64,000 nt of DNA from Phycisphaerae bacterium (GCA_041690105.1 JAWLHX010000005.1:1551-65550), one strand, 5' to 3'. Positions 12,892 to 64,000 are shown, counted from the stretch's first letter. The notes: a model not told the origin generated them from the letters alone. A program made the numbers and translations.

Positions 12892-13704
12892 TCAGTCGAA
12901 CGGACCTTCTTCGCGCTCCAGCGGGAAAAGGTCGCCGAGTATCTGCCGCGTCTTCTGCTGACGTTCTTCGGTCATGCCCAGGGTCGGCTCGGCCGCTTTG
13001 CGCTGCTTGGGCGGATTACCGTAATCGGCCAGCGGATTTTCAGTTTCCTGCAGATAGCTCGCCCAGGCCTCGCGATCGTAGCCGAAATCGTGCCCGGTCA
13101 TGTATCGCAGGCTATCGGCCGCATAATAGCGGACGGCCGGGTCGTCTTCGCTCGGCTCCAGGGCTACCAGCAGAGCCTCGGCCGACTGCCCGTCACGATG
13201 CTGGCGAAGGGACTGCGCCGCTGCCAGGCGCACATCGGAACGCGGGTCGCCACGCAGTGCACCGGCCAGGGCAGCCTGGGCCTCGTTGCTTTCGATCTCA
13301 CCCAAAGCTTGGGCACATTCGCTGCGGACATGAACATCGGGGTCTTTCTCCAGGCACAGTCGCAGCTCTTCGACACTGCTCTGCCGCCCCCAGATGCCCA
13401 GCGTCCGGGCCACCTGGGCCCGCACCAGCGGATCGGTCTCGCCCAGCAGGCTCAGTTCGACCAGGTCGACCAGTTCTTCGCCCGGATCGCTCCACCTGCT
13501 CATCTCGTAGAAGGCTTTGCGCCGGGCGTCGGCATCGTCCTGATCGACCGAAGCCTCGATAACCGCCGCTCGCTTGCTGCCGGATGTCCCGAAAGGCGAG
13601 CCCAGTTCGTATTCCTGACCGTCGTAACAGCCTGCCAGCGTCGCCACCAACAGTGTGGCCGCCAACAGCATCTGTGCCCCGGGGCGCCTGCCGCTTGTGA
13701 TCAT
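12892..13704 (-). CDS. HEAT-repeat lipoprotein
   Basis: Lipobox LAGC; repeated DPxVRxxAAxxL units (DPLVRAQVARTL, DVHVRSECAQAL, DVRLAAAQSL, DPAVRYYAADSL). Confidence 0.85.
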   Translation of the reverse strand: MITSGRRPGAQMLLAATLLVATLAGCYDGQEYELGSPFGTSGSKRAAVIEASVDQDDADARRKAFYEMSRWSDPGEELVDLVELSLLGETDPLVRAQVARTLGIWGRQSSVEELRLCLEKDPDVHVRSECAQALGEIESNEAQAALAGALRGDPRSDVRLAAAQSLRQHRDGQSAEALLVALEPSEDDPAVRYYAADSLRYMTGHDFGYDREAWASYLQETENPLADYGNPPKQRKAAEPTLGMTEERQQKTRQILGDLFPLEREEGPFD

Positions 13705-13713
13705 CTTCTCACC

Positions 13714-14577
13714 TCAACTGGTAGTGTTTAACTGCTCCGTCCGGCAAATGGCCGGATGCTCATTCAGGAAGAAGTCATCCGGCTCAACCAGTGTAACATC
13801 GCGCAGGGTCTCGCCCTGCATGAATCGTTCGCCAATGGCCCGGAACCGGTCCGGATTATCGCTGACATAACAGCGCAGGCCGCCGGCAGAACCATCTGGA
13901 GCCATAAGTTGCTGACGCTCCAGCATTTGCAGAACATCGCTGGCAACCTCTTCGGCCGAATCGACCAGGCTGACCTGCGGCCCCATGAAGTCGGCCAGGG
14001 CCTCCTTCAGCAACGGATAATGCGTGCAGCCGAGCACCAGGGACGATATCCGCCCCTTAACCGGTTCGAGGTACTCGCCCACAGCGGCCCGCACAATGGG
14101 GTCGGCAACGCTGCGACCTTCCTCCACCAGGGGCACCAGCAGGGGACAGGCACGTTCCCATATCTCATTGCGGCAACCAAGGTTACGAATTGCACGATAA
14201 TAGCTGCGAGAGGCTATGGTCGATTCCGTGCCGACAATGCCTATGGCCCCATCGGCCGGGCAGTCGGCCACCGCCCGGCGGGCGCCGGGTTCAATAACTC
14301 CAACCACCGGCAGCGAAGCGGCTTGCGATACGACATCCAAGCCCGCCGCCGTGGCCGTGTTGCAGGCCACGACAATCATCTTCAGGTCGAATCGCATCAG
14401 GAACTGCGTGTTCTGCAGGCTGTATCGGCGGACGGTGATAGGGCTTTTTGTGCCGTAAGGCACGCGGGCTGTGTCGCCAAAGTAGATGAATCGCTCTTTT
14501 GGCAACTTTCGGCGCAGGGCGGCCAGCACTGTCAAGCCGCCTATGCCGCTGTCAAATACACCAATAGCCCGGTGCAT
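13714..14577 (-). CDS. murI: Glutamate racemase
   Basis: IGVFDSGIGGLTV, GDTARVPYGTKS, VVACNTAT, VLGCTHYPLL. Start at ATG 14577. Confidence 0.97.
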   Translation of the reverse strand: MHRAIGVFDSGIGGLTVLAALRRKLPKERFIYFGDTARVPYGTKSPITVRRYSLQNTQFLMRFDLKMIVVACNTATAAGLDVVSQAASLPVVGVIEPGARRAVADCPADGAIGIVGTESTIASRSYYRAIRNLGCRNEIWERACPLLVPLVEEGRSVADPIVRAAVGEYLEPVKGRISSLVLGCTHYPLLKEALADFMGPQVSLVDSAEEVASDVLQMLERQQLMAPDGSAGGLRCYVSDNPDRFRAIGERFMQGETLRDVTLVEPDDFFLNEHPAICRTEQLNTTS

Positions 14578-54677: not shown

Positions 54678-54706
54678 TTGACGTCGACTGAATCGGCCGA
54701 TACATT
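54678..54706 (+). promoter_or_regulatory. Putative sigma70 promoter of tRNA-Ser
   Basis: TTGACG, 17 bp spacer, TACATT. Confidence 0.55.
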
Positions 54707-54810
54707 AGGTCGCTACCATCAGGCGGATACGCGGCGACCCACGCGCCAGAACGGGCGGGCCGAGATTTTTACTGCCGAATTCGCGAATTTGTACCATGTC
54801 TGACTCAGGC

Positions 54811-54898
54811 GGAGGGGTGGCCGAGTGGTCTAAGGCGGCGGTCTTGAAAACCGCTGTGCGGTTATACCGCACCGGGGGTTCGAATCCCTTCCCCTCCG
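54811..54898 (+). tRNA. tRNA-Ser (anticodon TGA)
   Basis: Acceptor GGAGGGG/CCCCTCC, anticodon arm GCGGT-CTTGAAA-ACCGC, long variable arm GTGCGG-TTATA-CCGCAC, T loop GGTTCGAATCC. CCA not encoded. Confidence 0.97.
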
Positions 54899-55007
54899 CT
54901 CTTTTTTCTGCCTTCGCACGCCCGTTGCCGGATAGGCGACAGATTGTCTCAAGTCCACCTAATAACCAGAACGCGCGGAGGCATGGGGGCGGGTCTGTTG
55001 GGGGGTC

Positions 55008-55739
55008 TTAGATGCCGGGGATGATTGAGACTCCATAGATGTTCTTCAGGATGTAATAAATGCCGGCCAGGAGGAAGACAATTCCGGTAGTGCGACGGAA
55101 CCACATTTCCACCTTGGCCAGGCTGTTGAACGATTTGCCGAGATACTGCCCTCCAAAGGCGATGACAAATGCGAAGCCGATGACGGGCACGGCGGTGCCG
55201 ATGCCGTAGATGATGGGCGGCAGGATAAGAGAACCATGCTTTAGTGAGATACCCAGGGCGCTGAGGAACATGGCGATGGACGGCGGGCAGAAGGCCAGGG
55301 CAAAAAGGCTGCCCAGCGGGAGGGCCCAGATGGCGCCGCCGCGGGCGATGCGATCCTGAAGCCGGGTGCCGCCGACGCTGAGCGATAGATTGATTTCCAG
55401 CAGATTCAGCAGAACGAGACCCACCAGCAGCAGCGCCGGCCCCAGAACCAGTTTGCCGTATCGCTGAAAGGCCCTTGACATGGGGCTGGCGAATTGGTCG
55501 AGGGCATCCTGTTCTCCGGCCATCGCCCTAAAGGCCCAGAGAAGGGCCACGCCCAGCACGACATAGACCAGTGTGCGGCCCAGGGTGTAGAGCAGCGCCG
55601 CCAGCATCACGCGGCGCGTGTCGCCAACATTGCGGCTGAGGAACGAGATGGCGGCGATGTTGGTGGTGAGCGGACAGGGGCTGATGGCCGTGCCCAGCCC
55701 CAGCAGAAAGACGAATCCCATGGCGGCCAGCAGGGTCAT
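55008..55739 (-). CDS. CcdA/DsbD-like membrane protein (ArsG-type)
   Basis: TAISPCPLTTNIAAIS and LFALAFCPPS paired Cys motifs within multiple TM helices. Confidence 0.85.
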   Translation of the reverse strand: MTLLAAMGFVFLLGLGTAISPCPLTTNIAAISFLSRNVGDTRRVMLAALLYTLGRTLVYVVLGVALLWAFRAMAGEQDALDQFASPMSRAFQRYGKLVLGPALLLVGLVLLNLLEINLSLSVGGTRLQDRIARGGAIWALPLGSLFALAFCPPSIAMFLSALGISLKHGSLILPPIIYGIGTAVPVIGFAFVIAFGGQYLGKSFNSLAKVEMWFRRTTGIVFLLAGIYYILKNIYGVSIIPGI

Positions 55740-56344
55740 TCGTTGCTGCCCTCCAGCGTTGAACGGATGCCCTGGCGGATGTAGCCGGGCAGATCGGCGG
55801 GGGCCTGCGCAGCCAGCTCCATGACTCTGTCCAACCGCACGCGCTGGACTTCCTGACCGTTAAGGAAGCGGACCACGATGACCGTATTGGTGCCCACCTT
55901 GTACTTGTCGGCCAGGGGCTCGTTCTGCTTCTCCAGGTAGTTGAGCGAGGCGTAGATCATGCGACCGGACTTCACTTGGTCGGCAAACTCGTCGCGGACA
56001 ATTGCCGCCGCGGTGCTGTCGATTCTGGTGCAGGTAACGCATGGAATGCCATGCATGTAGTAGACGATGATCTTCTCTTCAGAGGGGATTGCGGCAGGCA
56101 GTGTGGCTGCAGAATCGGCAGAATTATCGGCAACCTGGTCCGGATCAGATGTTGCGGTAGCAGCGTCCTGTTCCTGTGGCTGCTCGACTGCCTTGCTGTT
56201 CTGGCCCGAGCCATCTGCCGATCTGCGCAGCAAATCCTGTTCAACATCTGTGACCACAGGTGCCGTCTCGCGGCCAATTGCGAAACCAACGCTGACCAGC
56301 ATAAAGGCCAGCAGCAGGTATCCTATAACCTTCTTTGCCTTCAT
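55736..56344 (-). CDS. Exported thioredoxin-like CxxC protein (ArsF-type), copy 2
   Basis: N-terminal anchor; IIVYYMHGIPCVTC..ID; ATGA overlap with the CcdA-like gene. Confidence 0.8.
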   Translation of the reverse strand: MKAKKVIGYLLLAFMLVSVGFAIGRETAPVVTDVEQDLLRRSADGSGQNSKAVEQPQEQDAATATSDPDQVADNSADSAATLPAAIPSEEKIIVYYMHGIPCVTCTRIDSTAAAIVRDEFADQVKSGRMIYASLNYLEKQNEPLADKYKVGTNTVIVVRFLNGQEVQRVRLDRVMELAAQAPADLPGYIRQGIRSTLEGSNE

Positions 56345-56378
56345 GGCATCCTCCGTAGTCCGGGCCCGCTGCGGTGGG

Positions 56379-56876
56379 TTATTCGCCTCGGCCTCTGAGA
56401 CGATCCAGGCGCAGTGCAGTCAGCTCCTTGCGGATGGCCCCGGCAACATACTCCTGGAACAAAGCAGGCTGCCCGTAGAGCGACCACGTTCCCTCCAGCA
56501 CCTGGTGCGATACTTCCCGCTCATCGCGATACGAGACCAGCACCAGCGAGCTGGTGTTCAGGCCGTAGCGCTCGGCCATGTCTTCGTGCAACTGATAGTT
56601 CAGGGTCTGCCATTGGATAGTTCCGGCAGACATTTCCTCGGCGAAAGTGTTTTCAACCAATTCGCGCGACATCTGTTCGATCTTCAGGCACGTTGGACAG
56701 CGGAATTCCCGGTGCATGTAGTAGACCACGACCCCGTCCTGCAAAGGGCTGTCCTGCTCCGATGCCGACACGTCTCCGGCGGCCGAGGTCTGTTCCGGAT
56801 CGACTTGCGTAGACTGGCATCCGAACAGCGCAATGCCGGCCAGACTTGCCACTAATGCTATCGCGAATAAGCGCAT
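56379..56876 (-). CDS. Lipoprotein thioredoxin-like CxxC protein (ArsF-type), copy 1
   Basis: LFGC lipobox; VVVYYMHREFRCPTCLKIE. Confidence 0.85.
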   Translation of the reverse strand: MRLFAIALVASLAGIALFGCQSTQVDPEQTSAAGDVSASEQDSPLQDGVVVYYMHREFRCPTCLKIEQMSRELVENTFAEEMSAGTIQWQTLNYQLHEDMAERYGLNTSSLVLVSYRDEREVSHQVLEGTWSLYGQPALFQEYVAGAIRKELTALRLDRLRGRGE

Positions 56877-56903
56877 ATCAGCTCTCCCTGATGACGGCGT
56901 CGG

Positions 56904-58178
56904 TTACTTTGGGGCACACTGGCCCAGCTTGCAGGCCTTGGCAATTTGTGCAGGCGACATCCTCATTTTATCGGCAATGGCCTGATCGATGGTGATCATG
57001 TGGCCGACTTCGGTCGGGTTCTGATCGGCCCACGTCTTAAGATTATCGAGGCTGGTAAAGAAGCCCTGGTGGAAGCAGCCGGCCGATACGTACTTGCCGT
57101 CGGCGGTCTTCTTCTTGCCATACCAGGCGACAGCCGTGGCCGGCTCCAGCGATTTCACGTATCCGTCCATGGTCTTGACGACGACCATCTCGCCTGTCAG
57201 CCGGTCGGGCTGATGGACTTCAATGTCCTTGCCCGTACGCGAAGCCACGCCCAGGGCACAATGCGAGCAGCAGCCCCAACTGTAAACACCGTCGATCTTG
57301 ACCAGGGCCGCATCTTCCGGGTAGACGGAACGGTCGCAGAAGCCGCAACGGGTGGCAAGCTCCTTGCGCTTGAGCATCTCGTAGCCGACCAGATTGCCGC
57401 CAGTGGCCTTGCGTTCGGCCTCCGCGGCGTCGCGGCTGGCGAAGGCTTTGATTGTCGGGCGACCACTTTCGGCCAGGCCATACAAGTATACGGCGTCGAC
57501 CATCGGAGTCATCCTGCCCGTGGCCCAATCGGCCACCGAGGCACGGGCGTCGAAGCCGGTCTTATCCTCGGTGAGGCAGGAATACATGATGAAATAGCAG
57601 TGCGGGTCGCAGACGCGGACGTCGCCCTTGTCGCTCTTGACGACGACGGTCGTCTTGGGATTCACGTCGCCATCGCAGAAGTAGCAGATTTCGTCCTTGG
57701 CCCGCTCATCGGGTTTGGCGTCCAGGCGGCTATAGGCCGGCTTGAGGGCTTCCTCGGCGAAAGCATAGCCCAAGTCGCGGAACTTCTCGAGCATGGCATG
57801 GCGAGAGATGAAGCCCTCGTGACGCCAGAGTTCCTTGCCATCGGCATCCAGGAAGACCTGCGTCGGAATCATCTTCACGCTGTATTGGCGGGCAAGAGCG
57901 GCATTCTCGCGCTTACCGACATCGACGAACTCGACGGTCAGCTTGCCGGTGAACTCTTCCTTCATCTTCTCCAGAGCTGGCCACATGAGCTTGCAGGGAA
58001 CGCATTCGGTGGAACCAAGGTCAATCAGCTTTGGCACACCCGTGCGCACCACGGCCGGGGCGGAGGCGGGCGGCGGATCGGCCGCGGCGCCGGGCATTGC
58101 CAGCAGACTAAGGCATGCCATTGCCGTCAGCGCCACAAATGCAAAGAGACTTACGCCTTTCATCGCTGCCCTGTTCAT
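56904..58178 (-). CDS. Exported thioredoxin + NosL-like + MerB-like multidomain protein
   Basis: Signal peptide; DLGSTECVPC and IPTQVF (Trx); CYFC...VCDPHC...VADWATG..AF; CGFC...WGCCSHC...DRLTG...CFHQGFFTS. Confidence 0.75.
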   Translation of the reverse strand: MNRAAMKGVSLFAFVALTAMACLSLLAMPGAAADPPPASAPAVVRTGVPKLIDLGSTECVPCKLMWPALEKMKEEFTGKLTVEFVDVGKRENAALARQYSVKMIPTQVFLDADGKELWRHEGFISRHAMLEKFRDLGYAFAEEALKPAYSRLDAKPDERAKDEICYFCDGDVNPKTTVVVKSDKGDVRVCDPHCYFIMYSCLTEDKTGFDARASVADWATGRMTPMVDAVYLYGLAESGRPTIKAFASRDAAEAERKATGGNLVGYEMLKRKELATRCGFCDRSVYPEDAALVKIDGVYSWGCCSHCALGVASRTGKDIEVHQPDRLTGEMVVVKTMDGYVKSLEPATAVAWYGKKKTADGKYVSAGCFHQGFFTSLDNLKTWADQNPTEVGHMITIDQAIADKMRMSPAQIAKACKLGQCAPK

Positions 58179-58295
58179 GCTCGTGCTCCTTGAGGTTCAG
58201 TTTGTCTTGACGTACCAAATTGAAAACGCCGGACTACTGCTCTCCTGTGGCCCTGGCGATGTTGCCAGGCACAAACCACCTTTGCCACAAGCGGT

Positions 58296-58529
58296 TTACT
58301 GAAGCATAGGCTTGATAGCCTCGGCGTCAGGCACCTTGCCTACGACCTTGATCTGGCCGTCCACGGCCAGGGCCGGCGTCATCATTACGCCGAACTTCAT
58401 AATCTCGTTAATGTCCGTGACCTTCTCCAACTCGTACTCGATGCCCAGCGCCTTGGCGGCGGCTTCGGTGTTCTCGGCCAGCTTTTTGCACTTGGGGCAC
58501 CCGGTGCCCAGAATCTGCAGCTTCTTCAT
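58296..58529 (-). CDS. Small redox-active disulfide protein (thioredoxin family)
   Basis: MKKLQILGTGCPKC, GVMMTPALAVDG, 77 aa. Confidence 0.92.
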   Translation of the reverse strand: MKKLQILGTGCPKCKKLAENTEAAAKALGIEYELEKVTDINEIMKFGVMMTPALAVDGQIKVVGKVPDAEAIKPMLQ

Positions 58530-58557
58530 GAGCGTTGTCCTTTCAAACTTTTGCACG

Positions 58558-58983
58558 CTAAACGGTCTGTTCCATCAGCTTCTCGCGGGCGACGGTCGCG
58601 ACCTGCTCGACCTGTTCGGCTGTGCAGCGGACGCCCTTGACCTTCTCGATGCCCAGGTCAGTTACCTTAATCTGCGTGTAATTGGTGATGCCGTGGCGGT
58701 CGAAGGCCTTCTTTGCGCAGTCCATCGGGCAGCCGTCAATCACCAGATTCACGTCGGCATCGCGGGCGGTCTGGATCATGCCCTGAATGTCGCCGCCCAG
58801 GCCCGCCAGGCAGAACATCGTGCCCTTGCCCTCAAACATCAATTCGCGGGCGGCCCGGTCCGAAATCTCGCCCACGTTGGCCCCGCCGGAGCAGGCATAC
58901 AACAGCACGATCTTCTTTGCCTCGCTCCCGCAGTCGCAGGACTTGCTACTGGTTGTTTTCGGTGTTCCGCAGCATTCGCTCAT
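58558..58983 (-). CDS. DGC-domain putative zinc-binding protein
   Basis: YACSGGANVG, FCLAGLG, IDGCPMDCAKK; extra N-terminal CC/CDC. Confidence 0.88.
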   Translation of the reverse strand: MSECCGTPKTTSSKSCDCGSEAKKIVLLYACSGGANVGEISDRAARELMFEGKGTMFCLAGLGGDIQGMIQTARDADVNLVIDGCPMDCAKKAFDRHGITNYTQIKVTDLGIEKVKGVRCTAEQVEQVATVAREKLMEQTV

Positions 58984-59117
58984 TTGATTCTCCATCAGTT
59001 GGGCGAGATTCTTTTCGGATGGCGCTGCCGGCGCCCGTCCGGACAGCGCTATTGTCACCATACACACCTCGGGTAATATTCACTTTGCGCGGTAATAAGG
59101 CCAAGTCTCCTTTGCCG

Positions 59118-60731
59118 CTAGAAGAACGACCCATAAACTATCCCGCTGATGGTAGCCATGACGACCACCAGCGAACAGAAGACCACGGTCTTCTGCGTGC
59201 CCATGATGCTGCGGATTACCAGCATATTCGGCAGCGACAGCGCCGGGCCGGCCAGCAGCAGGGCCAGCGCCGGCCCCTTGCCCATGCCGGAGCCTATCAG
59301 GCCCTGCAAAATAGGCACCTCCGTCAGCGTGGCAAAATACATGAAGGCCCCGAAGACGCTGGCAAAGAGGTTGGTCCAGAGCGGCCAGACGGCCACCGCC
59401 AGACTCTCAAACGTGCCGCCGCCCCAGCCGGTCATGTCGAGCATCATTCGCGGACTGTCGCCAACCAGCATCTCAACGTATTTCTGCGGAATGAAGCCCT
59501 GGCTGCCCGGCCGGCCAAGCAGGAATCCCGCCACCAGCACGCCGAAGAACAAGAGCGGCAGTATCTGCTTGGCGAAAGTCCAGGTTGACGAGAACCATTC
59601 CTCGCCCTCGCCCTTGCTTCTGGCCAGGATGATCGACAGGCCGACAATGGCCGCCGAGAATGGCACCAGCACCCACAGATCGTGCATCGGCAGCACAATT
59701 GCCAGCAGCACCGGCGGCACGGCCACCAGCAGCACCTTCCAAGCTGGGATGCTGAACCAGAAGATAATGATGAGGCCGAAGATGGCGGCAAACAGGGCCG
59801 TCACCAGCCACTTGTTGCTCCACAGCGAAGCCCAGACGCCAGGGGTCGGGTCTCGCAACTGCTTGAATTTATTGGCCGCAATTTCAAAATCCTCCGAGCC
59901 GTCATCCGGCGCGCCCTCTGGACGCACGGTATAGGTGGCATCCGTTGCATCGGCATCAAATGGCGCTTTAACCACCTCGACACGCAGCGCGTTGTTGGCC
60001 TTGGCCGCTTCCTGCACCCGGCTTGATGCCGCATCAAGGTTTATTGTGGCATTACCGTCCGGCTGTTGCAGTGGCATATCCCAGGTGTTGGGCGAGCCCC
60101 AGTTGGCAAAAACCAGAATGGCCACCATGACGAAGAAAAAGGCAGCATTGTGCACCAGCGGGCGACTCACTTCAGGCTCGGGAGCGGCCATTTGTCCCTG
60201 GGCCCGGGCGGCCTCCTCCTTGCGGTAGACCAGGTGCATGATGACGCCGATGACAATCGAGAAGACCACCGCCCCGATGGCCCGGGCGATGCCAAGCTCA
60301 AAGCCGAGGATGCGGGCAGTTAGGATAATGGCCAGCACGTTAATGGCCGGCCCGCTGTAGAGAAATGCGCTGGCCGGCCCCAGACCCGCGCCCATCCGCC
60401 AGATGCCTGCAAAAAGCGGCAACACCGTGCACGAGCAGACCGCCAGCACCGACCCCGAGACGCTTGCCACGCCATAGGCCAGCACCTTGTTGGCCTTGGC
60501 CCCCAGATACTTCATGACCGAGGCCTGGCTGACAAAGACGCCGATGGCCCCGGCAATGAAGAATGCCGGCACCAGGCACAAGAGGACGTGTTCGCGGGCG
60601 TACCACTTGGCCAGGTGCAGCGACTCCGTGATGCCGTCCGTGAAACGTCCCCAGCCCACCGGCAGCCAGAAGAAAAGGAGAAAGATGGCTACGATCCAGA
60701 TGAGCTTTTTGCTTTCCTGCTTCCAGTCCAC
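59118..60731 (-). CDS. DUF318 (ArsP-like) permease
   Basis: EHVLLCLVPAFFIAGAI, VLAVCSCTVLPLF, FLYSGPAIN, FMYFATLTEVPI, LLLAGPALSLP. GTG start with GGGAG RBS. Confidence 0.92.
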   Translation of the reverse strand: MDWKQESKKLIWIVAIFLLFFWLPVGWGRFTDGITESLHLAKWYAREHVLLCLVPAFFIAGAIGVFVSQASVMKYLGAKANKVLAYGVASVSGSVLAVCSCTVLPLFAGIWRMGAGLGPASAFLYSGPAINVLAIILTARILGFELGIARAIGAVVFSIVIGVIMHLVYRKEEAARAQGQMAAPEPEVSRPLVHNAAFFFVMVAILVFANWGSPNTWDMPLQQPDGNATINLDAASSRVQEAAKANNALRVEVVKAPFDADATDATYTVRPEGAPDDGSEDFEIAANKFKQLRDPTPGVWASLWSNKWLVTALFAAIFGLIIIFWFSIPAWKVLLVAVPPVLLAIVLPMHDLWVLVPFSAAIVGLSIILARSKGEGEEWFSSTWTFAKQILPLLFFGVLVAGFLLGRPGSQGFIPQKYVEMLVGDSPRMMLDMTGWGGGTFESLAVAVWPLWTNLFASVFGAFMYFATLTEVPILQGLIGSGMGKGPALALLLAGPALSLPNMLVIRSIMGTQKTVVFCSLVVVMATISGIVYGSFF

Positions 60732-60826
60732 GTCATGCTCCCTGCTCTTCGGTCCAAATCGCCGGCTGTGGCAGCCACCCAAAAACGATACCAGCTGATT
60801 GAGTTCTCCCAGATACCTGCAAACAA

Positions 60827-61153
60827 TCAGCGCTTGCCCAGCACCACGGCCTCGCTTTCGAGCCTTTCTTTAAGCACCTGCGTCACACAATCAATAAACT
60901 TCATGATGCACGGCGTCCGAAGGCGGTACATGGCCCGCAGGCCGTCTTTGCGGAACTCGAGCACTCCGGATTTCAGCATCAGGTTAAGGTGCCGCGAGAC
61001 GTTACTGCGCTGGGCCACGATATGCTTGGCAATATCACAGACGCACTGCTCGCCGTCCTTCAGATAGTCGAGAATAGCCAGACGGATTGGATGCGCTGCC
61101 GCCTGGATGACTTCCGCCTGCAGATGATAAAGTCGCTGAAGTTCGTTGCTCAT
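60827..61153 (-). CDS. ArsR/SmtB family transcriptional repressor
   Basis: AHPIRLAIL, EQCVCDI, SNVSRHL HTH. Confidence 0.93.
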   Translation of the reverse strand: MSNELQRLYHLQAEVIQAAAHPIRLAILDYLKDGEQCVCDIAKHIVAQRSNVSRHLNLMLKSGVLEFRKDGLRAMYRLRTPCIMKFIDCVTQVLKERLESEAVVLGKR

Positions 61154-61184
61154 CGCCCTGCCCCATTGGTGAGTAATCAATCAC

Positions 61185-61212
61185 ATAATATCGTAGTCTC
61201 GGGCGTCGTCAA
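61185..61212 (-). promoter_or_regulatory. Putative promoter of the ArsR-family operon
   Basis: Minus strand TTGACG, 16 bp spacer, TATTAT; followed by GTGATTGAT, a possible operator half-site. Confidence 0.45.
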
Positions 61213-61423
61213 GAGGAATTCCCCTGGCATTTGGTCGGCCTGCTATCGCTACAGCGCTACTCTGGAAATTCATGGAACAGGCAGTTATAGTGGAGGCCCA
61301 TTGCTATGCAGGTTCGTTCGCTTTTTTGAGGAGGCCGGCCATGGCCAAGGACGATCTGGGCTTTGAGCGAACGCCGGCGATGTCCGCGCGGCGCAGAACG
61401 ACCATCACCCTGAGAGACGGAAC

Positions 61424-63283
61424 ATGATGACTATCGGAACAGACACCTTGGGGATAACAGCCGCGGCGGACGGTGCGGAGGTCCGCGTGACTGATGTGCT
61501 GCGCCACTGCCAGTGGGTGTGGCGCAGCGACGGGGCGACGTTCATGCAGGCAGGCGAGCAGGCCCCACGTCCGCTGGGCCGCCCGACCATCCTGATGAGC
61601 ACCGATACGATGGAAGTCGTCTTCACCGCCGGCGGCGGCACGGTTAGTTATGTGTGGTCGGTGGAAGGTGACTCCGTTGTCATTCGCCTGCGGTGTGACG
61701 CGCCGCAGATTGAATCAGTATGCCTGCCGGGGGCCTTTGCCCCGGCCGAGGGCACGGCCAGGGCGGCGGTGCCGGTGTACCAGGGACTGCTGCTGCGGGG
61801 CAGCGGCCACACGTGGCGGCGTCGCGTCGGCCATGGCGGCCACGAGGGATTCACCATGGCCATGGGCGCCATGCTGGGTGACCGTGGCGGATTGCTGGTC
61901 GTCCACGACAGCCCGTGCAACTGGATGGCCTGGTACGGCCAGAATGCCAGCGGTCCGGCATTTGGCTTTGAGCACCTGCGCTGTCCGGTTGAGGGCTGGG
62001 TGGATGCTTCGGTGCGGCTGTTCGCGGTCGATGCCGATGTCACCGCCGCCTGCAAGCGCTACCGCCGTCGCGTCATCGAGCAGGGCAACTTCGTGTCCTG
62101 GAGCGAGAAGATCGCACGCAAGCCGCTCGTCAAGGAACTCTTTGGAGCCCTGATTGCCTTCATCGGCTACAATCACGATGATTCGCTTGATTATGCCGCC
62201 TCAGCCGCTGCTCTGCATAGCCAGGGCTTTGAGTCGGTTTTCTACTACCCCGCCCGGATGTGCAGCTACACTCTGAACTTCCTCATGGGCGGGGATAAGC
62301 CGATCTGGCTGAGCGATGCACAGATCGAGGCGATGCGGGCGGTGCCCGGAGCGCACCTGTCGCCGTGGGGCTGGACGTTCGAGGGTCTGGACGATGGCTC
62401 GGAGGCCATGCGGTCGATCTTCCGCCATAACGAGTCGGGGCCTGCGGCCGGTTGGAAGATCGGCGAATTCCAATGGTACCAGGTCTGCACGCCATACCAG
62501 ATCGAGCACATCCGCAAACGGTTCGCCGGCGACATGGCGGCCATGGACTGGATCCACTATGACGTCAGCGCCAGTGTCGGCGGGCGTCCCTGCCTGACCT
62601 CCGGCCATGCCACTCACGGCAATGGGCCGCTTGGACGGCGGGGCGACACGCAGTGGATTCGCAGGCTGTTTGACCCCGAAACCGTGGGCAATCGTGTCGT
62701 CTCCAGCGAGGGCTTCGGCGATCATTTTGCGGGACACTACGACATTGGATCGACCAAGTGCATGCCTTTGTGGGGCGGTGCGGCCAACTGCGTGCCAATC
62801 CCGATGACCATGCTGGTCTTCCACGATTCCTGCATCCACGACTGGTGGGAACTGCACAACTACAACACCAACCCCGGATTCGGCCTGCAGCCGCTGCCGG
62901 AAGGCGTAGCACTGACTGGCGCGGGGCTGCCACAGCTCAAGGCGGCGATGGACGCCCTGTACGGTTGCCCGCCTAACGTGTTTCCCTTTGGCCGACAGTA
63001 CGCATGGGTGGACAAGTTCGGCGGCGACACCTTCGCCTTCACCATTCGCCCCGACGACCCATCTGTAGAGGAGGCCCTGGCTGCGGCATTGCCGGTGGCC
63101 CGGCTGCACGGGAAGATCGGGCAGTGCGAGATGACTTCGTGGGAGTCGCTCAGCGATGATGACGCCGTGCAGCGTACGGTCTTCGCCGACGGCACGGCCG
63201 TTGTCGCCAACCTCGGCGATGCTCCGTGCGAAATTGCCGGTTGCGAAAGGCTGATCGGCCATTCGTGGCGGCTGACGAATTGA
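61424..63283 (+). CDS. Putative glycoside hydrolase (DUF5696 / GH101-129-like barrel)
   Basis: WIHYDV and VVSSEG segments spaced like GH101/129-type barrel acidic residues; PMTMLVFHD; followed by a GH39-like gene. Confidence 0.5.
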   Translation: MMTIGTDTLGITAAADGAEVRVTDVLRHCQWVWRSDGATFMQAGEQAPRPLGRPTILMSTDTMEVVFTAGGGTVSYVWSVEGDSVVIRLRCDAPQIESVCLPGAFAPAEGTARAAVPVYQGLLLRGSGHTWRRRVGHGGHEGFTMAMGAMLGDRGGLLVVHDSPCNWMAWYGQNASGPAFGFEHLRCPVEGWVDASVRLFAVDADVTAACKRYRRRVIEQGNFVSWSEKIARKPLVKELFGALIAFIGYNHDDSLDYAASAAALHSQGFESVFYYPARMCSYTLNFLMGGDKPIWLSDAQIEAMRAVPGAHLSPWGWTFEGLDDGSEAMRSIFRHNESGPAAGWKIGEFQWYQVCTPYQIEHIRKRFAGDMAAMDWIHYDVSASVGGRPCLTSGHATHGNGPLGRRGDTQWIRRLFDPETVGNRVVSSEGFGDHFAGHYDIGSTKCMPLWGGAANCVPIPMTMLVFHDSCIHDWWELHNYNTNPGFGLQPLPEGVALTGAGLPQLKAAMDALYGCPPNVFPFGRQYAWVDKFGGDTFAFTIRPDDPSVEEALAAALPVARLHGKIGQCEMTSWESLSDDDAVQRTVFADGTAVVANLGDAPCEIAGCERLIGHSWRLTN

Positions 63284-63301
63284 CTTTCCTGGGAGAATGA
63301 G

Positions 63302-64000
63302 ATGAGCAGGCGCATTTCGACTTTGCCTGTTGCGAAAGTGCAGGTAAGCGCAGCGGAGGTTACAGGGCCGCTGGAAACCTGGCGTCATGCCCTCGGCCAC
63401 GGTGGAGTGAATTCCCATCCGCTGCCTGCCGGCGTTATCGACGGGGCCAAGCGGCTCCGGCCACGGCTGGTGCGGATATTCATCCAGGAGTTCTTCCGCC
63501 TCTATACTGCCACGGACCAATATGATTTTACGCGACTGGACCCGTACATGGAGGCGCTGGGGCGGACCGGCGCCAAGGTGGTCGCGGCCATCTGTGTCAA
63601 ACCGCCCCTGCTCTTTCCGCAGATTGACGAGACACAGTGGCGGCCCAACGACCCCGGGCAGTGGCACCGCTTAATTGTCGCCATGGTGCAGCGGTATACA
63701 GTTGAGCGGGCGCTGGTGACGCACTGGGAGGTGGGCAACGAGGTGGACATTGGTGAGGGGGGCGGCTGCCCGTACCTGATCCGCGACGGCGACGACTACT
63801 TCGAGTATTACCGCATGACGGTCGCAGCCATTCGTGAAGCAGCACCGGAGGTTAAGGTCGGTGGGCCGGCTGTGGCCGCTCTGGCCAATCCACCGATGGC
63901 AGACTTCATCCGCCGCTGCCGCGAGACCGGCGAGCCGCTGGATTTCATCTCCTACCATTTGTACTCCGACGACCCGGAGTTGCACGGTCGCTTGGTCCAT
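63302..64000 (+). CDS. GH39-like glycoside hydrolase; runs off the window edge
   Basis: Not in the ORF track. Manual translation from ATG 63302, open to 64000: YDFTRLD, HWEVGNEVD, VKVGGPA, LDFISYHLY. Confidence 0.8.
   Translation, partial: MSRRISTLPVAKVQVSAAEVTGPLETWRHALGHGGVNSHPLPAGVIDGAKRLRPRLVRIFIQEFFRLYTATDQYDFTRLDPYMEALGRTGAKVVAAICVKPPLLFPQIDETQWRPNDPGQWHRLIVAMVQRYTVERALVTHWEVGNEVDIGEGGGCPYLIRDGDDYFEYYRMTVAAIREAAPEVKVGGPAVAALANPPMADFIRRCRETGEPLDFISYHLYSDDPELHGRLVH

Follow-up and report, generated by a model that had tools for sequence, protein, structure and literature searches.

An arsP/arsE/arsF/arsG-type cassette with an exported Trx-NosL-MerB-like protein in a Phycisphaerae bacterium

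The window analysed here, a stretch of 64,000 nucleotides from a Phycisphaerae bacterium (GCA_041690105.1 JAWLHX010000005.1:1551-65550), contains a cassette of eight genes that is a variant of the already named arsP/arsE/arsF/arsG arsenic-resistance module and is, for this reason, not categorically new. Its new element is a widespread, uncharacterised exported protein of 424 amino acids (aa), hereafter the fusion, in which a thioredoxin domain is followed by a NosL-like and a MerB-like domain. The cassette is read, with modest confidence, as an ArsR-controlled arsenical-defence operon, in which an export module is combined with a CcdA-type thiol relay that serves this Cys-rich, arsenical-binding protein; the fusion is likely the end-point of the reducing chain. 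A preliminary description of the locus had already proposed a trans-envelope reducing chain leading to an exported metal(loid)-handling protein, and this remains the best-supported reading, on account of the two-Cys membrane protein ArsG, its exchange for CcdA in relatives and the thioredoxin fold of the exported protein ArsF1. The conserved, Cys-rich fusion is encoded exactly where the client of such a relay would be expected.

Families and the proposed thiol relay

All eight open reading frames (ORFs) foreseen by that description are present; they follow one another in the same direction on the minus strand and span 55008-61153 when counted from the arsR ATG (61180 from an upstream TTG). Families were assigned from Pfam and NCBIfam profile matches, the latter judged against curated cut-offs (Table 1), and they agree with the earlier identification of an ArsR with a CVC motif, a DUF318 permease, a DGC protein, a small thioredoxin (CPKC), two CxxC proteins (CPTC and CVTC) and a CcdA-like protein. 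The relay core of the earlier reading holds up for the most part; what it had not recognised are the named families ArsE, ArsF (present twice) and ArsG, all of which score above their NCBIfam cut-offs.

In the textbook arrangement, reducing equivalents pass from thioredoxin through CcdA to an exported thioredoxin-like protein, and the layout of the cassette points that way, as judged from sequence and from a structure model of ArsF1. As in the CcdA-ResA, CcdA-CcsX and DsbD pathways, a cytoplasmic thioredoxin is found together with a two-Cys membrane protein of the DsbD clan and exported CxxC proteins of thioredoxin fold. The thioredoxin, ArsE, is 77-86 aa long and has no signal peptide by hydropathy. 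Its relatives most often have 77 aa and keep the CPKC motif in 67 of 73 cases; the true start of the window's arsE is probably the ATG at 58529, which would give the same 77 aa.

ArsG contains exactly two cysteines, both flanked by proline, namely C22 (SPCPL) in the first transmembrane segment (TM1) and C151 (FCPPS) in TM4, and both are conserved in 23/23 relatives. The equivalent SPC and GPC cysteines of the CcdA proteins encoded in related cassettes are kept in 53/53 and 50/53 sequences. When the two profiles are compared with hhalign, they align over 203 columns, the whole length of ArsG (probability 94.6%, E 7e-8), with the first Cys in register and the second no more than two residues away from the shared Pro; the ArsG profile found no match among PDB sequences. 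ArsG differs from CcdA in belonging to the DsbD_2 branch and in its TM4 motif, FCP instead of GPC, and the cassette as a whole differs from the CcdA pathways in being under ArsR control and in its proposed client, which is a Cys-rich NosL/MerB-like protein and not an apocytochrome c. The gene is present in a single copy and, because a housekeeping DsbD_TM gene is encoded separately on contig C38, ArsG is a dedicated extra copy under the control of ArsR.

Every ArsF-like protein combines one CxxC motif with an anchor or a lipobox. The AlphaFold2 (AF2) model of ArsF1, with a predicted local distance difference test (pLDDT) score of 84.9, has the order beta-alpha-beta-alpha-beta-beta-alpha of a thioredoxin fold, with CPTC at the N-terminus of the first helix, and the top 50 Foldseek matches in the PDB are all thioredoxin or PDI domains, with no nitroreductase among them. 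ArsF1 models as an exported thioredoxin fold, not as a nitroreductase, and shows no flavin domain.

A further line of evidence comes from related loci. Eighty loci, all from metagenome-assembled genomes (MAGs), were kept for the study of neighbourhoods, and the genes of 83 loci were labelled by phmmer with seeds taken from the window and three annotated contigs. Downstream of the fusion, 22 of the 83 encode an ArsF-like protein and ArsG, and 53 encode a longer exported CxPC thioredoxin and a canonical CcdA (PF02683); most of the other eight end at a contig edge close to the fusion, and one of them, L010, has ArsG on inspection. ArsG and CcdA occur together in none of the 83 within 3.5 kb downstream of the fusion. 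Canonical CcdA stands in for ArsG in most related cassettes, and this replacement argues for electron transfer, without proving it.

The names ArsE, ArsF and ArsG derive from the work of Chen, Zhang and Rosen in 2019, in which ArsEFG of Shewanella putrefaciens 200 was reportedly described as a nitroreductase pair with an efflux permease for aromatic arsenicals. As in that system, the three families are adjacent, under ArsR and beside an ArsP-family permease. Here, however, arsF is duplicated, the interval from arsP to arsF holds the genes of the DGC protein and of the fusion as insertions, and the host is an anaerobe that has not been cultured; in fold and topology, the proteins suit a thiol relay and not a nitroreductase with a pump. 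If the published role applied, trivalent roxarsone or nitarsone would have its nitro group reduced by ArsE together with ArsF, ArsG would export the amino-aryl arsenical, and the fusion would be an accessory. The family scores of ArsE, both ArsF proteins and ArsG speak for this role, which is nevertheless unlikely: the modelled fold of ArsF1 is neither that of a flavin protein nor that of a nitroreductase, ArsE is a thioredoxin of only 77-86 aa, and ArsG's place is taken by canonical CcdA in 53 of the 83 loci. In addition, synthetic nitro-aromatic arsenicals would hardly be the main selection for anaerobes of sediments and digesters.

Domains of the exported fusion

The fusion begins with a Sec-type signal peptide, and its structure model shows an N-terminal helix followed by a linker of low pLDDT. 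In the thioredoxin domain, C59, P61 and C62 are invariant in 30/30 homologues, and PDB thioredoxins are matched at E 4e-15. Since thioredoxins swamped the profile search with the whole protein, the C-terminal part was searched against the PDB alone. The earlier designation as a Trx-NosL-MerB fusion holds for the thioredoxin and MerB parts (PF00085 and PF03243, the latter matching residues 293-401 at 60-63 bits, where the gathering score is 27) and is weak for NosL, since PF05573 covers the domain nearly in full length but scores 13.7 bits against a gathering score of 24; one homologue, P0100, reaches 25.8 bits. About 40% of the homologues (P0034, P0046, P0068, P0073 and others) are extended at the N-terminus, where an AQCPCSGGGG motif and one more hydrophobic helix stand ahead of the usual signal or anchor; the fusion of the window has no such extension.

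The top Foldseek match of the MerB-like domain is MerB2 (5c17, E 9e-8). Alignment to the MerB structures 5C17 and 5C0T places C304 and C368 at the Hg-binding residues Cys96 and Cys159; the core fold and both thiols are shared with MerB. The two proteins differ in several respects: the position of Asp99 is occupied by C307, all four TRASH zinc ligands are present, an export signal precedes the domains, and both the N-terminal domain of MerB and a mer operon are missing. The catalytic triad Cys96/Asp99/Cys159 is, thus, not complete. C304, C307 and C368, together with the TRASH cysteines of the domain, are invariant in 30/30 homologues. The protein ends in a flexible tail with two further invariant cysteines (Table 1), the residues 418-424 of which have a pLDDT below 50.

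Both Cys arrays of the fusion, one in the NosL-like and one in the MerB-like domain, match the TRASH consensus C-x2-C-x19-22-C-x3-C, with a spacing of x21 in each case, and the model predicts a knuckle, a beta-hairpin and a helix at both sites, which is the layout of a treble clef. An internal duplication of the two domains receives modest support from hhalign (E 0.0016, probability 16%). According to the literature, the NosL/MerB fold arose from duplicated TRASH treble clefs that later lost zinc binding (PMC4999995). In NosL, which serves as a Cu(I) chaperone of the periplasm and has a Zn/Cys site, the CxxC...CxxxD zinc site pre-forms the site of the soft metal (PMC8457098). On the strength of these two precedents, the fusion family looks, by its sequence, like a NosL/MerB-fold protein that has retained the full set of zinc-finger ligands next to the two MerB thiols, and its four-Cys sites probably hold structural zinc, by analogy with NosL.

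The likeness to NosL itself (PF05573; Shewanella denitrificans NosL, PMC8457098) comprises export, the NosL/MerB fold and the CxxC...Cxxx(C/D) site. In contrast to NosL, the fusion stays below the Pfam threshold, has Cys instead of Asp as the fourth ligand, is joined to thioredoxin and MerB-like domains, has no nos genes nearby and lacks the methionines that bind Cu(I) in NosL along with Cys62: two positions beyond the second Cys of the knuckle, where a Cu(I) ligand would be expected from NosL, G170 or R283 is found and not Met.

The preliminary description had called the terminal protein of the chain an enzyme. This label is not supported, because the catalytic Asp of MerB is replaced by Cys. 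It is accordingly very unlikely that the exported MerB-like domain works as a genuine lyase that splits C-As (or C-Hg, C-Sn) bonds in the periplasm and has its thiols regenerated by the relay, although the Pfam domain and fold of MerB are present, the equivalents of C96 and C159 are invariant, and the gene has arsP and arsM, whose products act on methylarsenite, as linked neighbours. The residue replaced in 30/30 family members is the catalytic proton donor; the curated NCBIfam MerB models give 27.9 bits against a cut-off of 200 and 22.9 against 193, and the genome has neither merA above cut-off nor an hgcA motif. No enzymatic precedent is known for C-As protonolysis. A bolder version, in which the fusion would be a new ars product, that is, an O2-independent periplasmic enzyme with a MerB-derived all-Cys site that is recharged by ArsE-ArsG-ArsF and transforms organoarsenicals, is a long shot as well. 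The same holds for the idea that such an enzyme would act before organoarsenicals reach the cytoplasm, for example by C-As cleavage of methyl- or aryl-As(III).

The arsenic link in relatives and in the host genome

Relatives of the fusion are found in at least 192 species-representative genomes, and a protein collection of metagenomic origin contains more than 1500 matches to the family. The names they carry in their sources are "thioredoxin 1", "hypothetical" and "organomercurial lyase", of which the first and the last are misleading. The hosts are uncultured anaerobes of sediments and digesters, mostly Planctomycetota and Lentisphaerota MAGs; Phycisphaerae, Sedimentisphaerales and Pirellulales predominate, and some Victivallales, Armatimonadota, Riflebacteria and Aegiribacteria are also represented.

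The order arsR - arsP - (DGC) - arsE - fusion recurs in about 80 independent loci, with the fusion almost always located between arsE and the DsbD-type gene, and the same neighbourhood is seen in three annotated metagenomic contigs, one from an NCBI MAG and two from ENA assemblies. Such an arrangement is far beyond chance. The survey of cassette variants that had been suggested earlier yields, besides the ArsF/ArsG and Trx/CcdA versions, cassettes into which acr3 or arsM is inserted. On the same strand, acr3 is a neighbour in 39 of the 83 loci (47%), arsC in 24 (29%) and arsM in 22 (27%), compared with a chance of roughly 0.5%, by our own estimate, of finding a given single-copy gene within 10 kb on either side; these frequencies make the link between the cassette and arsenic resistance a strong one. 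In 10 loci acr3, and in 8 loci arsM, sits between arsP and the fusion. Two loci, L031 and L066, have the order arsR-arsP-arsM-acr3-arsE-(DGC)-fusion-Trx-ccdA, with the DGC gene present in L031, where the gaps from arsP through ccdA are about -1 to 26 bp; ArsM and Acr3 of both loci score above their NCBIfam cut-offs.

An exported flavoprotein of the FMN_red family with a Tat signal accompanies the cassette in 34 of the 83 loci, usually directly 3' of CcdA and sometimes beside arsP (for example L003:10184-10885, L066:5385-6074 and L073:8797-9501). Of 36 copies, 33 have the RR motif. The window does not encode this protein.

In the window's own genome, the arsenic genes are split into two unlinked operons. 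None of arsC, acr3, arsB, arsM and merA is found in the cassette, and arsC, acr3, arsM and merA are not found in the 64-kb window either; a canonical arsR-arsC-acr3-arsM operon lies on the minus strand of contig C30 (5569-8657), with an arsC of the Trx-type LMWP kind, an acr3 of 385.8 bits (cut-off 282.8) and an arsM of 286 bits (cut-off 263). The absence of these genes, which the preliminary description had used to define the cassette, is therefore correct for the cassette itself but is a local variant and not a defining trait, because arsC, acr3 and arsM are merely unlinked in this genome and often lie inside the operon of relatives.

ArsB was not found in the genome. A reading of the cassette in terms of mercury was downgraded, because the genome has no MerA above cut-off, no second MerB-like domain and no hgcA cap-helix motif.

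The repressor and the proteins of the proposed export side are likewise rich in conserved cysteines. ArsR has four, the CVC motif in helix 3 (C46/C48 in the 117-aa frame) and a C-terminal Cx6C, which are kept in 38-39 of 39 cassette ArsRs. The permease has a triad of C69 and C116-S-C118, conserved in 58-59 of 61 relatives (59 for C116-S-C118). Like ArsP of Campylobacter jejuni, it is a member of the Pfam family ArsP_1 and carries two vicinal cysteines (CSC) within a TM segment, and it differs from that protein in its length of 554 aa, in a third conserved Cys and in a central insert of about 100 aa. The C. jejuni protein was reportedly identified as a methylarsenite efflux permease by Chen et al. 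in 2015, and its Cys pair is said to be essential. The insert is acidic and stands between the two halves of the permease (residues ~227-325, window 59800-60100); as the length of ArsP in related cassettes varies between about 390 and 617 aa, it is a variable extra domain.

The DGC protein, which is cytoplasmic, has four invariant cysteines (C59, C86, C113 and C117, in 47-48 of 48 relatives) and a Cys-rich N-terminal stretch, and finds no match among PDB sequences. A stand-alone DGC paralogue with 48% identity is encoded outside the window (contig C12:6764-7240), away from ars-type genes. A literature search returned no account of a DGC domain with arsenic, or of MerB with an ars operon, beyond mentions in reference lists.

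Locus layout and proposed role

From arsR to arsG, the intergenic gaps are 44, 50, 1, 117, 27, 34 and -4 bp, the last being the overlap of the arsG start with the arsF2 stop. Of the two candidate starts of arsR, the ATG at 61153 is favoured over the TTG at 61180 because of the promoter-like site at 61212-61185, which was called from a consensus match alone. The 117-bp spacer between arsE and the fusion is unusually long and contains a perfect 6-bp stem (CCTGGC, loop aacatc, GCCAGG) at 58252-58269, with no T-run 3' of it and with a strong AAGGAG ribosome-binding site ahead of the fusion ATG; from its sequence, the stem may be an element for RNA processing or attenuation.

A genomic island inserted at the neighbouring tRNA-Ser gene was considered and rejected, because no direct, att-like repeat of the tRNA 3' end is found in 54700-64000. 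Neither genes of the excisionase or integrase type nor att repeats flank the copy in the window. In a close relative, a Phycisphaerae MAG (L001), the region about 3.5 kb downstream of the cassette (12996-14539) encodes an HTH_17 protein resembling an excisionase and an integrase of phage type, which hints that the cassette can be mobile.

Table 1. Features of the cassette and its flanks, with positions counted from the first nucleotide of the window
Feature	Position	Strand	Description
Promoter-like site	61185..61212	minus	TTGACG-16-TATTAT; 10/12 consensus matches; immediately 5' of arsR
arsR, ArsR/SmtB repressor	60827..61153	minus	108 aa from ATG; HTH_5; NF033788 72 bits (cut-off 55)
ArsP_1/DUF318 permease	59118..60782	minus	554 aa; PF03773 ArsP_1 (formerly DUF318), E 1e-63
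DGC-domain protein, cytoplasmic	58558..59067	minus	PF08859, E 8e-31
arsE, MTH895/ArsE mini-thioredoxin	58296..58556	minus	PF13192; TIGR00412 108 bits (cut-off 62); CPKC
Fusion, Sec-type signal peptide	58080..58178	minus	Residues 1 to ~33; positive n-region, hydrophobic 9-27, AAA before DPP
Fusion, thioredoxin domain	57774..58034	minus	Residues 49-135; PF00085 (match 49-128); active site C59-V-P-C62
Fusion, NosL-like domain	57363..57731	minus	Residues 150-272; C165-x2-C168-x21-C190-x3-C194, plus H193, C201
Fusion, MerB-like domain	56943..57362	minus	Residues 273-412; C278-x2-C281-x21-C303-x3-C307
Fusion, C-terminal tail	56907..56942	minus	Flexible; invariant C416-K-x-G-x-C421-x-P
arsF1, exported lipoprotein	56379..56876	minus	NF040494 85.6 bits (cut-off 60); lipobox LFGC20; CPTC at residues 60-63
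arsF2, N-terminally anchored exported ArsF-family protein	55736..56344	minus	NF040494 63.4 bits (cut-off 60); CVTC at residues 102-105
arsG, DsbD_2/CcdA-like membrane protein	55008..55739	minus	PF13386 52.5 bits; NF040495 equivalog 218 bits (cut-off 200)
tRNA-Ser(TGA)	54811-54899	plus	Convergent with arsG, 108 bp past the arsG stop; T-run after the tRNA

In the favoured arsenical-defence operon, a metalloid that reacts with thiols would be sensed by ArsR and the genes thereby derepressed, which would then supply two modules. The first, in the cytoplasm and the membrane, would consist of the Cys-triad permease and the DGC protein, which would handle and export the thiol-reactive trivalent metalloid. 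In the second, cytoplasmic ArsE would use its CPKC motif to reduce the two-Cys membrane protein ArsG, and ArsG would in turn reduce the exported thioredoxin-fold modules, which are the lipoprotein ArsF1, ArsF2 with its anchor and, in the fusion, the thioredoxin domain with its CxPC motif. The terminal client of this relay would be the NosL-like and MerB-like part of the fusion, to which the MerB-like domain would contribute C304, C368 and a swinging C-terminal CxxxxC tail. The periplasmic protein would bind As(III) or methyl/aryl-As(III) through thiolates and act as a trap or as a hand-off chaperone, with its cysteines held in the reduced state or recycled by the relay. Gene content, families, conserved cysteines, predicted folds, the recurrence of the operon, its linkage to acr3, arsM and arsC and the exchange of ArsG for CcdA come from the sequence data themselves; we infer which way the electrons flow, which metalloid is involved and that it is bound rather than converted.

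Several points weigh against this interpretation. The topologies of the cassette proteins were predicted from hydropathy and the positive-inside rule only, and the clustering of the fusion cysteines is deduced from the alignment to MerB and NosL. The two cysteines of ArsG would equally suit the binding of R-As(III) in transport, as in the published "efflux permease" role. The clade of the repressor may not be arsenic-specific, since the paralogue most similar to the cassette ArsR, which has 59% identity and the same four cysteines and is encoded beyond the window on contig C16:4040-5400, precedes a UPF0016/GDT1-type membrane protein with two ELGDKTQLAT repeats and a Cys-rich C-terminal tail. 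The permease falls far short of the cut-off in all curated NCBIfam transporter models, of which the nearest are those of the SO_0444 Cu/Zn efflux protein and of SaoE.

The last two points would also suit a cassette that is not specific for arsenic, namely a general system of the envelope that deals with thiol stress or with soft metals (Cu, Zn, Cd, Hg) and relies on a chaperone of NosL type to deliver or sequester the metal, as would the precedent of NosL as a periplasmic Cu(I) chaperone (PMC8457098). Such a system is distinctly unlikely: the copper ligands Met64 and Met145 of NosL have no counterpart in the fusion, no nos or cop genes are found nearby, and the recurrent neighbours are acr3, arsC and arsM, at frequencies (47, 29 and 27% of loci) well above the estimated chance.

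If the arsenical-defence operon with its thiol relay is confirmed, the cassette would offer a handle on the physiological role of the widespread ArsE, ArsF and ArsG proteins, and on ArsG as an electron conduit besides, or instead of, a pump. As a protein of NosL/MerB fold with full TRASH zinc-finger ligands, the fusion bears on the evolution of MerB. Should the less probable enzyme reading prove true, the fusion would represent a surviving intermediate on the way from Zn-binding TRASH fingers to MerB, as well as an anaerobic counterpart of the O2-dependent ArsI lyase; an oxygen-independent transformation of arsenicals would close a gap that is known to exist in the anoxic arsenic cycle.

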